This document shows, piece after piece, positions 1,354 to 8,154 of a DNA stretch of 64,000 nucleotides (positions are counted from its first letter, which is position 1; every line of letters starts with the position of its first letter). Below the pieces are notes generated by a model. It did no database searches and was not told the DNA's origin. It worked only from the letters and a program-made list of their open reading frames with translations. This DNA is from a virus (lineage: Duplodnaviria; Heunggongvirae; Uroviricota; Caudoviricetes), in IMG/VR virus record IMGVR_UViG_3300042456_000759. One strand, 5' to 3'. The translations under genes were made by a program, and so were the position numbers.

Positions 1354-1697
1354 AATATTAATAAGATTTGAGAAGTATTATTAAATTGTTTATTAAATTC
1401 ATATATTTCTTTAACTAACCAGTCTAAAATAGGAGTATTTGGATTATTAAATATAGGCCAAATTCCTTTAATTGCTTGATGACCATATAAAACTTCTAAC
1501 TTTTTAGTATAATTTTCTCTAGAGTTAAATAAATAAAGCAATATTTCATCATTTTCACCATTTATATTACAGACAAATTTGCTCAATTTTTCTAATAACA
1601 TTGATTTATCATCTACAATTAAATAAATTTTATTTTTCTCTATTCTTTCTATAATAATTTCTTTTTTCATTTTTAAGGTTTTTTGTGATCTCACCAT
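1350..1697 (-). CDS. hypothetical protein (true start probably the internal Met at about 1670, avoiding overlap with the tRNA)
   Basis: ORF track. The annotated N-terminus overlaps the 3' end of the tRNA at 1686-1757. MKKEIII is an alternative start. Confidence 0.5.
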   Translation of the reverse strand: MVRSQKTLKMKKEIIIERIEKNKIYLIVDDKSMLLEKLSKFVCNINGENDEILLYLFNSRENYTKKLEVLYGHQAIKGIWPIFNNPNTPILDWLVKEIYEFNKQFNNTSQILLIL

Positions 1698-4423: not shown

Positions 4424-4765
4424 TTAATTTATTAACATAAGATTTAATAATATCCAAGGATTTTCATCAATATATTTATTTAATTCTTCATTAGAATTAA
4501 ATCTTATAATATGTTTATCTCCTGAATTCATATGTATCTCAAGAATAGGTTTATCATAAACTATATTATTTTCAATAATATAGTTTGAAAAATTAGTTGT
4601 AGTCATAAGATCACAATCATGATATTTTAAATGTTCAGGTTCTACTTCTTGATATAAACCAAAAAAATAACGTTTTATTTTTTCAGGATGATAAATCCAG
4701 AAACTTTTTTGTTTATAAGATTTATAAACAATTGATATATTGTCTTTATTTATATATTTATCCAT
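4424..4765 (-). CDS. hypothetical protein
   Basis: ORF track. Confidence 0.5.
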   Translation of the reverse strand: MDKYINKDNISIVYKSYKQKSFWIYHPEKIKRYFFGLYQEVEPEHLKYHDCDLMTTTNFSNYIIENNIVYDKPILEIHMNSGDKHIIRFNSNEELNKYIDENPWILLNLMLIN

Positions 4766-4861
4766 ATTTATAGATTTATAAGTTATGTAAATGTTTTTTC
4801 ATATCTTTCATAATAACAAAGAATGTACTTGAATATTTCATTGTTGTTTAATTTTTTTAAT

Positions 4862-4936
4862 TAGTACGAGTAATAGGATTCGAACCTATGCTACCTCTTC
4901 CAGGATGAGGCGTACTACCATTATACTATACTCGAA
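4862..4936 (-). tRNA. tRNA, identity uncertain (anticodon loop TCCTGGA, possible CTG-Gln or CCT-Arg, with a 1:72 mismatch)
   Basis: GGATTCGAACC on the plus strand is the reverse complement of a T arm ATAGG-TTCGAAT-CCTAT. D stem GTAT/GTAC with an ATGGTA loop. Acceptor CGAGTA/TACTCG. Anticodon stem CCTC(A)/(A)GAGG has a terminal A-A mismatch and position 33 is C. Confidence 0.55.
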
Positions 4937-5314
4937 AATTTTTATAAGGAGTAGCATCGTTTCATGAAACGACACTCGGATGTAAGTTATACCATCCTAA
5001 TACTTCTTCTCTTTTTGCCAAACAGATATAAATCTAAAAGTTATAATCATGATTATAATAACTTTTAATATATCTTCATATATATAATTTATATCAATAT
5101 GAGAACCTTAAACTCATAGAAGAACATACAAATAAGGTTGTATGGATATCCTAGTTTTTAACCTAAAAACACAGAATACATATCAAGTATTCATTTTATA
5201 AAAGGGTTGATTTTATACTCTGCACTACCTTGTCTTTTTAATTGGACTTAAAGTATTTTATAGACTTTAAGAGACACAGGAGCCCCACAACTTGTTAGGT
5301 TTCCGCCATAATGG

Positions 5315-5404
5315 TAGTCAGGACAGGATTCGAACCTGTAAATTGTAAAGGGGTTACGACCTTACTAATTCTATTTTTGCGTCTACCAATTCCGCTACCT
5401 GACT
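5315..5404 (-). tRNA. class-II-like tRNA (Leu/Ser/Tyr-type D arm) with a non-canonical extended central hairpin; CCA encoded (5312-5314)
   Basis: Acceptor AGTCAGG/CCTGACT, D arm GCG-GAATTGGTAGA-CGC (identical to E. coli tRNA-Leu), T arm ACAGG-TTCGAAT-CCTGT. The central 39 nt forms an 11-bp hairpin with loop TCGTAAC rather than a 5-bp anticodon stem. Confidence 0.5.
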
Positions 5405-5558
5405 ATTATTAATCAATCATATCTGAATGAAACTGAAATGGATCTTCTAAATATATATGGTAATAATATTTTACATCATCATCCAATAACCCATCTAATT
5501 CAACAGAGTACTTATTTTTAAATTCTTCTAAAGTTAGCATTATCACGTAATATTTTAG

Positions 5559-5730
5559 TAGTCAGGACAGGATTCGAACCTGTATACTTATAGTTAAAAC
5601 TCTGTCGCTACATCAGGAGAGGTACATTCATACTTCACTGTAGTTGTCGGTATGCCAAAGAGTTAATCCCCGAACATGGACTATAAGCCTTCTCAACCAA
5701 GAGACGGTCTACCAATTCCGCCACCTGACT
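5559..5730 (-). ncRNA. tRNA-like gene, paralog of 5315-5404, with about 80-nt central insertion
   Basis: Identical 5' acceptor and D region (AGTCAGGTGGCGGAATTGGTAGAC) and identical 3' T arm and acceptor (ACAGGTTCGAATCCTGTCCTGACT) as 5315-5404. 172 nt in total. Confidence 0.4.
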
Positions 5731-5881
5731 ATATTATTTTTTATGTATTTAACAACACCCAAACAATTGATTACGTAAAATTCTACTATTAACCATCTTT
5801 TTAACTTAACCCACCAAGGGTCTTTTTTCATCTTATCCAGCATTCTCTGAACTGTTTTACTTCTCATATTAATATTTTTTG

Positions 5882-6107
5882 TAGTCAGGACAGGATTCGA
5901 ACCTGTAAATAAACACTTACCATCTTGGTTATTAACAGCTCCTACTCTGATTTCGGAGAGTTTGATAAGTCCCTAAACCACATCTGAGGATTTTTATTAT
6001 TCCAGAACTTTGGTTCTTGGTGGTGAAATCCGTTAGGCTTTTAATTAGGGGTCTACTTGTTTATTCCAATACTCAGCTATAGGCATTACCAGTTCTGCCA
6101 CCTGACT
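5882..6107 (-). ncRNA. tRNA-like gene, third paralog, with about 135-nt central insertion
   Basis: Same 24-nt 3' end (agtcaggacaggattcgaacctgt on plus) and the same acceptor 5' end AGTCAGGTGGCAGAACTGGTAATGCC. 226 nt in total. Confidence 0.4.
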
Positions 6108-6147
6108 GGATAACCCTCTCTATAAAAATAGAAAGGGTTTTTATAAT

Positions 6148-6726
6148 TTATTCCTTATTAGTTCTAAAAACTACATCAGTTTTATCAGACAATATAGGTC
6201 TATAAATTATTGGTTTTCTTCTTCCAACAACAAATTTAGAAGGAATTGTTAACAATAAACTATCATGTTCAAATTTTAATTGCTGTAATTCATTCTCAAT
6301 ATATGTAAAGTCATTACGTTTAGATTCAATTAAATTAATTAAATCATTATACATATCAAGAACCCTCGTATAAGTTATAGAAGGATTATTTTGTTGTACC
6401 CAATACCACATTAATTCTTTATTAGGACTTTGATTAGACATTTGAATTAACATAATATTAGCAAAACCTGTATCAGCAAATTTAATTACATTATATTTTT
6501 CTAATACAGTTTTATACATATTTTGATATGTAGTTTTTCTTTTTTCTTCTGTACGATAAAAACGTTGTTTTATCATAACTTCTTGATTTACAACACTAAT
6601 TGTAAATCTCGTTATTACAAATAATGTATAAATTAAACAAATTAAAGCAATTATTCGTAATAAGATAAATAAATATTTTTTCATTGAGATGTTTTTAAAA
6701 ATGTGAATATGAGAATTAATTTTCAT
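6148..6726 (-). CDS. hypothetical membrane-anchored protein
   Basis: ORF track. N-terminal TM segment LFILLRIIALICLIYTLFVI. Confidence 0.5.
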   Translation of the reverse strand: MKINSHIHIFKNISMKKYLFILLRIIALICLIYTLFVITRFTISVVNQEVMIKQRFYRTEEKRKTTYQNMYKTVLEKYNVIKFADTGFANIMLIQMSNQSPNKELMWYWVQQNNPSITYTRVLDMYNDLINLIESKRNDFTYIENELQQLKFEHDSLLLTIPSKFVVGRRKPIIYRPILSDKTDVVFRTNKE

Positions 6727-7725: not shown

Positions 7726-8154
7726 TTAAGAATTTAAATATGTATAAGCTTGACAATAAAGTTCTAATCTATCGAATGTCTTTTTAGAAAGGTTTTTAAG
7801 TCTTGTAATTTTAGAATTATGTTCTAAATCAGCCAATTTAATAGCTTTAGCTATTGGATTATAAGCTAATTTTTTAATATAATCCATATAAACTTCTTCA
7901 GGTTTATGAGTTAATAATTGTAAAATAGTGATTATTTCTAAAGAAAAACCTTGATCTAACAAATATTGTTCTGTATAACCTCCTGCATATTTATCTTCAA
8001 ATAAATCATGTAATACTCCGCAAATCATTGCTGTTTCTCCTAAATGACTTACTTTATTCATTACATATAATAAATGTAATATATAAGGTTTATTTCCTTT
8101 ATCGTATGTATGTTCGAATGCTTCTGAGGCAATTTTAATAGCTGTAGCTAACAT
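7726..8154 (-). CDS. HD-domain small alarmone hydrolase-like protein ((p)ppGpp hydrolase, SpoT/Mesh1-like HD fold)
   Basis: Motifs in SpoT-HD order and spacing: His pair (EHTYDKGNKPYILH), HD dyad (CGVLHDLFEDKY), and KLADLEHNSKITRL, which matches the SpoT/RelA KLADRLHNMRTL helix. Confidence 0.6.
   Translation of the reverse strand: MLATAIKIASEAFEHTYDKGNKPYILHLLYVMNKVSHLGETAMICGVLHDLFEDKYAGGYTEQYLLDQGFSLEIITILQLLTHKPEEVYMDYIKKLAYNPIAKAIKLADLEHNSKITRLKNLSKKTFDRLELYCQAYTYLNS

Follow-up and report, generated by a model that had tools for sequence, protein, structure and literature searches.

The window analyzed here, the whole 64,000-nucleotide (nt) stretch of the IMG/VR virus record IMGVR_UViG_3300042456_000759 (Duplodnaviria; Heunggongvirae; Uroviricota; Caudoviricetes), carries three transfer RNA (tRNA)-like elements, termed E1, E2, and E3, that are interleaved with two small open reading frames (ORFs) and followed by a match to a self-cleaving ribozyme (Table 1). 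Read along the minus strand, the order is E3, a 52-aa ORF, E2, a 45-aa ORF, E1, an encoded CCA, and a hatchet ribozyme match, and no convincing promoter or terminator was found on that strand inside the array. A first-pass annotation, made from the letters alone, had reported three minus-strand elements of 90, 172, and 226 nt with identical ends, and the coordinates, the 5′ parts, and the T arm were all confirmed. The three elements have in common the acceptor stem AGUCAGG/CCUGACU, A73, C74, U48, the T arm ACAGG-UUCGAAU-CCUGU, and a tRNA-Leu-type D arm, and their centers are mutually unrelated. The 5′ part reads AGUCAGGU(A/G)GCGGAAUUGGUAGAC in E1 and E2 and AGUCAGGUGGCAGAACUGGUAAUGC in E3, the D arm of which is GCAGAACUGGUAAUGC. 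A 25-mer consisting of the T arm, the 3′ acceptor strand, and A73, ACAGGTTCGAATCCTGTCCTGACTA, occurs exactly three times in the window, compared with an expectation of 0.00 from shuffled sequences (none in 100 shuffles), and the G+C content of the elements is 39 to 44% versus approximately 26% locally. The family covariance model built in this analysis (R1) scored E1, E2, and E3 at 81.6, 60.6, and 54.0 bits (E = 8.5e-11 for the last), in comparison to at most 33 bits for the ordinary tRNAs of the window.

Table 1. Components of the tRNA-like array, in their order along the minus strand of the window.
Feature	Position	Strand	Description	Basis
E3	6107..5882	minus	tRNA-like element, 226 nt; A73 at 5882	sequence, R1 model
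52-aa ORF (MRSKTVQRMLDKMKKDPWW..., MRSK ORF)	5709..5867	minus	begins 15 nt past E3 and overlaps E2 by 22 nt	
E2	5730..5559	minus	tRNA-like element, 172 nt	sequence, R1 model, folds
45-aa ORF	5409..5546	minus	GTG start, internal ATG 2 codons in; between E2 and E1	
E1	5404..5315	minus	tRNA-like element, 90 nt	sequence, R1 model, fold
CCA of E1 (C74, C75, A76)	5314..5312	minus	genomically encoded	sequence
Hatchet-type ribozyme match	5205..5311	minus	RF02678; directly 3′ of the E1 CCA	

The centers of the three elements differ in layout. In E1, the D arm is followed by a 7-nt A-rich linker and then by an 11-bp bulged hairpin that abuts U48 and the T arm and has the conserved loop GGUCGUAACC. An earlier hand folding had given this hairpin as 11 bp with the loop UCGUAAC, which comes close to the minimum-energy fold; the latter divides the stem into 5 + 6 bp around a bulged A and closes it with a 9-nt loop, UCGUAACCC. 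The fold of the whole element has a free energy of −22.6 kcal/mol (z = −2.0). In E2, a 3- to 4-bp hairpin follows the D arm and precedes a domain of ∼100 nt that ends 2 nt before the T arm and is closed in the folds by the 9-bp stem GCUUAUAGU/ACUAUAAGU. The center of E3, ∼175 nt, lies between the D arm and U48.

The elements were compared with known RNA types. Several hallmarks of decoding tRNAs are present, namely the 7-bp acceptor stem, the D arm, and a T arm with a UUCRANY loop (from the sequence, constrained folds, and pair counts). ARAGORN called four other tRNAs in the window and did not call E1, E2, or E3 as tRNA or transfer-messenger RNA (tmRNA). The Rfam tRNA model (RF00005) reached threshold for E1 alone, at 42.6 bits and in an alignment that passes over the anticodon-arm region as a local insertion of 33 nt; E2 and E3 had no Rfam match at threshold. 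Among 154 family members, E1–E3 included, an arm of 5 bp with a 7-nt loop at the anticodon position was seen in 6, compared with 3.6 expected from shuffled centers, and the combination of U33 with a purine at position 37 was seen in none. ARAGORN called a minority of the family members, with inconsistent "anticodons" that were in some cases two or four bases long. In a permissive Rfam scan of positions 4700–6400 (E up to 10), the interiors of E2 and E3 matched no family. An interruption by a group I or group II intron was rejected because no intron family matched in that scan, and a group I intron is also opposed by the insert size of 80 to 135 nt and the lack of anticodon-stem halves. Identity with tmRNA was rejected on the basis of the ARAGORN result and of pair 3:70, which is U-A rather than G3:U70. 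A theta ribozyme unit, related to that of hepatitis delta virus (HDV), was rejected because no HDV-family match was found in the same permissive scan, in the whole window at threshold, or in 17 + 10 related loci. There was no YrlA match in the window, and the matches in one related locus (L033; L numbers identify the loci collected) reached only 21 to 23 bits versus a threshold of 69. As judged from their sequences, E1–E3 are tRNA-derived RNAs unable to decode, and they are neither decoder tRNAs, nor intron-bearing tRNAs, nor pseudogenes, neutral decay being excluded by the conservation pattern of the ends, stems, and center classes described below. The first-pass annotation had likewise proposed tRNA-derived RNAs with a role other than decoding and had discounted group I introns, both of which held up; its suggestion of anticodon-nuclease decoys is not supported, as E1–E3 have no anticodon loop to cleave.

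E1–E3 are members of a large family: at least 120 IMG/VR loci contain the exact 25-mer, the R1 model gave 159 matches in 70 loci, and a looser search over all fetched loci yielded 324 elements, 274 of them distinct, in ∼180 viral metagenome loci with up to 8 per locus. When the extent of an element is defined by pairing the 25-mer match with the nearest upstream AGTCAGG, the lengths vary continuously from 54 to 182 nt, and E3 extends this range to 226 nt. The first ∼26 nt and the last 25 nt are constant blocks between which the centers are unrelated. A blastn search of the region and of the consensus of the constant part against 50,697 phage records revealed no full element in cultured phages, and no close relatives were recovered through the neighboring 192-aa virion protein. 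Among 185,579 species genomes, the 25-mer was found in only 14 contigs, all from metagenome-assembled genomes (MAGs), six of them Bacteroidota, and in no isolate bacterial genome; on these grounds an origin as host tRNA or prophage was rejected. The small proteins flanking the elements recur across the contigs of the family, and in our own reading of the loci the start codons mostly lack a purine-rich ribosome-binding site. Because of these two features and the MAG contigs, the data suggest that the carriers are virulent phages of Bacteroidota-like hosts. Our literature search found no description of this tRNA-like family, and one survey mentions unnamed tRNA-like candidates in IMG/VR (PMC10690425). 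On present sequence criteria, the most fitting classification of the elements is a new family of tRNA-like RNAs.

The constant part, or chassis, retains individual nucleotides that make tertiary contacts in tRNAs. Across unique copies, U8 is present in 175 of 176, A14 A15 in 150 of 176, the D-loop GG in 158 of 176, and U48 in 154 of 176, and the T loop UUCGAAU, A73, and the acceptor AGUCAGG/CCUGACU are also constant. Conservation extends beyond the mature ends, with C74 in 170 of 174 copies and the leader nucleotides U(−1), A(−2), and A(−4) in 142, 124, and 123 of 174, respectively; a further encoded CCA nucleotide is rare (C75 in 8 of 174). In an alignment of 55 sequences, changes on both sides were observed for all three D-stem pairs and for two of the five T-stem pairs, and 97.4% of the cells form a standard pair. 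Some members have the whole T stem replaced with the acceptor unchanged, and the rare acceptor variants found at ORF-anchored loci are compensated (AAUCAGA/UCUGAUU and AGCCAGG/CCUGGCU). Because compensatory changes occur in the D, T, and, rarely, acceptor stems and single tertiary-contact nucleotides are conserved, we conclude from these alignments that the chassis is under selection at the RNA level. In several members (L135, 1640–1785, and members in L056 and L086) an extra hairpin of 30 to 50 nt lies within the D loop between A15 and G18, so the center is not the sole permissive site. The AGUCAGG acceptor also occurs on canonical tRNA-Lys(UUU) or tRNA-Ile(UAU) genes (L033, 13031–13101 on the minus strand; L059, 4958–5030; L136, 1640–1713), and the same tRNA-Ile body elsewhere has another acceptor (compare L009, 4877–4949, and L050, 3674–3746), which, as far as these copies go, implies either acceptor swapping by recombination or selection for AGUCAGG.

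In place of the anticodon arm, each member carries a center module of 20 to 175 nt that is specific to its type. The 260 distinct centers fall into ∼205 unrelated classes, 33 of which recur in different loci or contigs. Compensatory changes, judged by eye and in the inspected classes only, were seen in L140/L035/L010, where GUUGAA/UUCAAC is exchanged for GAGCAA/UUGCUC around a conserved loop, and likewise in the stems of L072/L051/L118 and L052/L029/L002. Copies within one genome almost always differ, a same-class pair within one locus being found for three classes only. The class of E1 is conserved in seven contigs: L033 and L251 contain exactly the 39-nt center of E1, and the centers of L022, L057, L064, and L066 form a related subclass that keeps AAAUAGA and the loop AGGUCGUAASCCCU. 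The centers of E2 and E3 are orphans with no relative among the 260. Overall, the folding stability of the centers modestly exceeds that of dinucleotide-shuffled sequence (mean z = −0.60, p = 7e-10, n = 119). In constrained folds, the last helix of the center usually ends 0 to 2 nt before the T stem, like a class II variable arm, and a second helix directly follows the D stem in about half of the members (∼45% have two top-level helices). The recurrent modules are most likely the working part of these RNAs; for the orphan centers of E2 and E3, tolerated filler may be as good an explanation. A second T-arm-like hairpin, for example ACGG-UUCGAAU-CCGU, was noted in some centers or D-arm positions (L135, 52–172; L139, 1111–1211; L049, 13264–13356; L015, 2390–2481).

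Directly 3′ of E1 lie the two features that the first-pass annotation had missed, the encoded CCA and the hatchet-type ribozyme, the latter recovered in the permissive Rfam scan. The match to RF02678 (5315..5205) is full-length (model positions 1–133) and scores 43.4 bits (E = 5.5e-7; gathering threshold, 51), with helices P1–P4 and all 13 highly conserved nucleotides (CAA, UGGG, GCAG, and AAA) present. Hatchet ribozymes cleave at the 5′ base of P1, where U1 pairs with A19 before the conserved CAA, and the nucleotide at position −1 can be any base (PMC6561176, PMC4604424). By alignment, U1 corresponds to position 5311 of the window, which places the predicted cut at the bond joining A76 (5312) to U1 (5311), directly after A76 of ...CCUGACU-A-C-C-A. 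The predicted cut would release E1 with a complete CCA and a 2′,3′-cyclic phosphate. In approximately 90% of hatchets, the cut is preceded at a distance of a few nucleotides by an unconserved hairpin termed P0 (PMC4604424), and at this locus the acceptor/T-arm helix of E1 together with ACCA takes the place of P0. The earlier idea of small ribozymes embedded in the elements was thus near the mark in kind and not borne out as to position, the hatchet abutting the 3′ end of E1 and the interiors of E2 and E3 being free of Rfam matches, and the idea that the elements are processing substrates agrees with the conserved leader and trailer and with the ribozyme at the E1 3′ end.

Other CCA-encoding elements are often followed by a conserved spacer of ∼52 or ∼92 nt that reaches exactly from the CCA to position +1 of the next tRNA-like gene; neither spacer has an Rfam match (the ∼52-nt one at E up to 10). 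The shorter one reads AGUUAACC(C)AC..UAAGACUAGAAACG(U)GGUGAC and continues into a hairpin, the stem of which covaries and the GAAAGA loop of which is invariant, followed by ACAU (L251, 1109–1160; also L265, L024, L248, L262, L268, L245, L250, and L281), and from its pattern is a candidate processing module or ribozyme. The longer one, AAGAAACAAGUAAAACGCAAACGCACAGUCCCUUGAUGCAUCAGGUGAGG...CUCUGUUUCUUUUUU, is closed by a long-range stem (L251, 2706–2797; also L246, L266, L275, L279, L282, and L285). A shorter motif, (U)UGAC(A/G) plus a 4- to 5-bp covarying stem with loop GAAAGA and AA(C/U)AU, directly precedes tRNA-like genes or tRNAs at many other loci (for example, L122, L092, L108, L078, L287, L009, L054, and L111, and the gut-phage loci L205, L210, and L212); it is absent from the window, and as DNA it resembles TTGACA-N17/18-TATAGT. 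In L033 (∼11170–11540, minus strand), the last array element has an encoded CCA and is followed by ∼370 nt of ORF-free, structured-looking sequence with a terminator-like hairpin at its end; this stretch partly resembles hatchet blocks (UAAGUGGGGC ... GGAGAUUAUAAAAU) and has no Rfam match.

The elements are closely fitted to small ORFs at many loci. In the window, the stop codon of the 52-aa ORF is a UAG in the D loop of E2 (GGUAGAC), and the 45-aa ORF, which has no PHROG family match, ends with TAA TAA 1 nt before E1. Homologs of the 52-aa (MRSK) ORF were found in 10 other viral loci, and elements flank the ORF in 9 of these. In 8 the ORF is bracketed, one element ending just ahead of its ATG and a second beginning at or over its stop; L136 has an occupant on the downstream side alone, a canonical tRNA-Ile, and L142 has none on either side. 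The element centers found in these slots are unrelated to one another. For the 159 elements matched by R1, an ATG ORF begins within 40 nt downstream in 59 cases on the same strand compared with 9 on the opposite strand, an ORF stop falls within −12 to +26 of the element start in 63, and in 13 of these U(−1)A1G2 itself serves as the stop codon UAG. Approximately 60% do not abut ORFs and sit in arrays of tRNAs and elements (for example, L009 and L030).

The features of the chassis can be compared with what leucyl-tRNA synthetase (LeuRS) recognizes. The Escherichia coli enzyme depends on A73, A15-U48, G18G19, A20a, and D/T-loop contacts, the anticodon and variable arms are dispensable for charging, and the acceptor-stem sequence is not read (PMC9976931). 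The determinants A73, A15-U48, G18G19, A20a, and the D/T core are present in E1–E3 and in 85 to 90% of the family. As all of them are kept and the dispensable arms alone are lost, leucylation is plausible, and by this analogy E1–E3 and their relatives may be chargeable with leucine.

The explanation that we favor, at roughly even confidence, is that these are small RNAs for which a tRNA chassis serves as the framework and whose recurrent modules do the work. In this scheme the chassis (AGUCAGG/CCUGACU, A73, C74, U8, A14 A15, G18 G19, U48, and the T arm) would be held constant and the anticodon arm replaced by a type-specific module. The elements would be cotranscribed with the flanking small early ORFs, and RNase P, to go by the tRNA-like fold and the conserved leader, would cut between U(−1) and A1. 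The 3′ end would be made in most members by the host 3′ machinery and CCA addition and in E1 by the cis-acting hatchet after the encoded CCA, its position being set by alignment and the cleavage predicted, leaving a 2′,3′-cyclic phosphate. Excision would free a stable tRNA-shaped RNA and would at the same time cut the transcript into short mRNAs with start codons ∼13 to 30 nt from the new 5′ end. The RNAs, with their LeuRS determinants kept, may then accept leucine, and the module, where it belongs to a recurrent class, would most likely do the work; those of E2 and E3 may, as said, be filler. A more ambitious proposal, which we consider rather unlikely, is that phages, probably of Bacteroidota, keep a natural library of small RNAs on one tRNA chassis, with several distinct and conserved modules per genome, maturation by tRNA machinery, ribozyme, or spacer, and a chargeable CCA, the products serving as leucine-carrying or tRNA-mimicking adaptors directed to targets such as host factors, defense systems, or mRNAs. 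If true, this would be a modular RNA effector system without a described counterpart and would provide a concrete biological job for a hatchet ribozyme.

Several observations weigh against the favored explanation. The centers of E2 and E3 fold no better than shuffles (z = +0.87 and +0.24, respectively), as do the whole elements (z = +0.27 and −0.71), and because these centers have no relatives they are beyond covariation testing. No motif common to all centers was found. No conserved partner protein was detected beside the elements, since the clustering of 3,095 ORFs from 121 loci gave common small phage proteins only. Most loci were gathered through the constant 25-mer, which inflates its apparent conservation; in the ORF-anchored loci, which were found independently of the 25-mer, AGUCAGG is kept in 18 of 19 elements. 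The canonical tRNA-Lys(UUU) and tRNA-Ile(UAU) of these phages have the same acceptor, so the acceptor alone marks no leucine or nondecoding role. To our knowledge, the acceptor sequence is not read by RNase P, RNase Z, or LeuRS, and its strict invariance is not explained by these enzymes; the invariant stem points to a sequence-specific partner. The hatchet match lies below its gathering threshold and was absent from the threshold scan, and a 2′,3′-cyclic phosphate would block charging until removed. Finally, a tRNA was found upstream of none of 80 ordinary viral hatchets, so the idea that hatchets generally follow tRNAs was rejected; the junction of a tRNA-like element with a hatchet was found in none of 53 viral loci with a CCA-encoding element, that of E1 being the only one found, and a metagenome scan with a weak pattern for such junctions gave only chance matches among the matches listed.

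Some of the same observations would be expected if the chassis alone mattered, as a cis signal at which RNase P and the 3′ machinery cut a polycistronic early RNA, with the center neutral. Such pure punctuation, which we regard as possible though unlikely, accounts for the tight spacing of elements to ORFs, for the MRSK-flanking slots that hold unrelated centers of 65 to 226 nt or a canonical tRNA-Ile (L136), for the orphan centers of E2 and E3 that are no more stable than shuffles, and for the lack of a common motif. It does not account for the majority of elements that lie in arrays away from ORFs, for center classes that recur across contigs with compensatory changes where inspected, or for the near absence of same-class copies in one genome; moreover, inserts of 100 to 175 nt are costly in a compact genome, and processing needs no single fixed acceptor sequence.

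We are more doubtful that the function resides in the acceptor end, the RNAs being leucine-accepting, nondecoding mimics that act as decoys, sinks, or amino-acid donors for an enzyme reading the top half of tRNA, with the center secondary. Candidate enzymes are LeuRS, leucyl/phenylalanyl-transferase (L/F-transferase), and a host defense nuclease or transferase targeting acceptor ends. The retention of every E. coli LeuRS determinant with loss of the dispensable arms alone, the near-invariant acceptor, A73, and C74, the several copies per genome, and the exact CCA end that the predicted ribozyme cut would give E1 are all in keeping with this possibility, which leaves the long, diverse, class-conserved centers unexplained and meets further difficulty in the canonical Lys and Ile tRNAs with the same acceptor and in the indifference of LeuRS to the acceptor-stem sequence (PMC9976931).

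It is improbable, in our judgment, that the ∼26-bp 5′ block and the 25-bp 3′ block act as DNA, as homology arms or a nuclease target for shuffling small-ORF cassettes, with gene conversion keeping the blocks alike and the tRNA shape merely ancestral. An orphan 3′ element fragment (GAATCCTGTCCTGACTAC) directly follows an ORF in L035 (14678–14703), and the element at L138, 1422–1486, is truncated by an internal deletion; both appear to be signs of recombination at the constant blocks, and the tRNA-Ile body with and without the family acceptor and the cassette-like flanking of ORFs by elements point the same way. Substitutions that compensate one another in the D and T stems, and rarely in the acceptor stem, point instead to selection on RNA pairing, as does the conservation of individual nucleotides that make tertiary contacts (U8, A14, G18G19, U48, and the T loop); elements are also found in simple tRNA arrays that have no ORF cassettes. 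That the elements are ordinary tRNAs, either class II species with oversized variable arms missed by gene finders or intron-interrupted genes, is very improbable: the Rfam tRNA model scores E1 above threshold, ARAGORN calls a minority of members, and the members with two top-level center helices resemble a class II cloverleaf, but against this stand the 154 members without a canonical anticodon arm beyond chance frequency, the inconsistent ARAGORN anticodons, the lack of a group I or II intron match, and the continuous variation in length. Decaying tRNA pseudogenes, an option raised in the first-pass annotation for which the lost anticodon arm and the orphan, not unusually stable centers of E2 and E3 might speak, are scarcely credible given ends that are near-invariant and nucleotide-exact in more than 300 copies on unrelated contigs while the centers differ, D and T stems that covary, center classes that recur with compensatory changes, conserved leader and trailer nucleotides, and a ribozyme match placed at the E1 CCA.

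Other features of the window were recorded. The gap that separates E3 from the stop codon of the 192-aa ORF upstream of it contains a 12-bp hairpin, AACCCUUUCUAU-UUUU-AUAGAGAGGGUU (6110–6141, minus strand), which lacks a U tract and lies 4 nt ahead of A1 of E3. The ∼270 nt between the hatchet and tRNA-Gln (4936–5204, minus strand) are ORF-free and contain several perfect hairpins, for example gaatacttgatatgtattc and aagttattataatcatgattataactt; this region could be another noncoding RNA or a regulatory region. At 13986–14060 on the minus strand, ARAGORN called a "tRNA-Stop" with anticodon UUA, the loop of which, CGUUAAG, has G rather than U at position 33; it has a weak anticodon stem and an encoded CCA, starts with A1, and may be an ochre-suppressor-like or otherwise noncanonical tRNA. 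Pfam and PHROG scans of the neighbors in the window were uninformative apart from a small HD-domain protein of 142 aa (7726–8154, minus strand), which matches PHROG 990, "metal-dependent phosphohydrolase" (E = 6e-41), and weakly Pfam HD_4, and may have a role connected with nucleotides or RNA ends. Among the scanned ORFs of the window (1–21 kb), none was recognized as a tRNA nucleotidyltransferase. Outside the window, a match to GOLLD RNA (RF02032; 100 bits versus a threshold of 150, E = 1.9e-25) occupies positions 17–416 of L139; three tRNA-like elements flank an MRSK ORF at that locus, and the first of them lies ∼700 nt downstream of the match.

If made as predicted, these RNAs would form a large class of phage noncoding RNAs of which we found no description, and with the E1 unit the biological role of hatchet ribozymes could be put to the test. 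In practice, tRNA finders miss the family or assign spurious anticodons to it, and this affects the number of tRNAs counted in uncultured phages as well as what is inferred about their codon usage or recoding.

Class II tRNA-Leu is among the known RNAs closest to the elements. The D arm GCGGAAUUGGUAGACGC is one that we take to be the same as in E. coli tRNA-Leu, and A73, A15-U48, G18G19, A20a, and the T loop agree as well. A "minimalist" tRNA-Leu without anticodon and variable arms is still charged, as reported in PMC9976931 in citing Larkin 2002. The phage elements differ from both in having no anticodon, a type-specific center of 20 to 175 nt, and an invariant acceptor starting from A1-U72, and, whereas the minimalist RNAs are laboratory constructs for which charging was seen, the elements are natural phage genes known from sequence. 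The joining of a tRNA top half to a non-tRNA domain is reminiscent of tmRNA and YrlA; the elements lack G3:U70 and an ARAGORN tmRNA call, and YrlA, without a match in the window, is topologically permuted relative to them. In mitochondrial tRNA punctuation and in MALAT1/mascRNA, RNase P and RNase Z cut out tRNA-shaped elements, and the mRNA ends are set by this excision. The overlap of ORF stops with the first element nucleotides in 13 of 159 cases resembles this arrangement, which differs in the bacterial-virus context, the many ORF-free arrays, and the diverse, class-conserved centers of the present family.

Theta ribozymes, which are minimal HDV-like ribozymes, process the 3′ ends of gut-phage tRNAs whose hosts are mostly Bacteroidota, and only 4.5% of the theta-associated tRNAs encode CCA (PMC10879173). 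The E1 unit is similar in that a self-cleaving ribozyme cutting at its own 5′ end lies directly 3′ of a phage tRNA-type gene and would define the 3′ end of that gene; the likeness is functional only, as the ribozyme is a hatchet rather than HDV-like, follows a nondecoding tRNA-like RNA, and is predicted to cut after an encoded CCA. If these RNAs are made as predicted, hatchets would join theta as a second class of ribozyme that completes phage tRNA-type RNAs at the 3′ end. The full-length P1–P4 match and the 13 conserved nucleotides link the E1 ribozyme to RF02678; unlike the usual hatchet, it scores below threshold and has a tRNA-like helix in place of the plain hairpin upstream.

A possible analog in a cultured phage, open to experiment, is found in T4 (L411). 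By annotation, species 1 and 2 (rnaC and rnaD) are small stable RNAs inside the phage tRNA cluster, and we know of no function for them. In our own reading, the 3′ 92 nt of rnaC (1410–1501, minus strand) form a tRNA-like domain without a normal anticodon arm (R1 score, 23.5 bits), with acceptor CGGAACG/CGUUUCG and T arm CCGGG-UUCGAAU-CCCGG. Only general tRNA features are held in common, the T4 RNAs being single copies with neither the constant chassis nor a family of variable centers. A further parallel in design is artificial. In the tRNA scaffolds engineered by Ponchon and Dardel for the expression of recombinant RNAs, a structured RNA reportedly replaces the anticodon arm and the tRNA body provides processing and stability. 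The phage elements are natural and come in hundreds of types and, if made as predicted, would be the natural counterpart of this scaffold.

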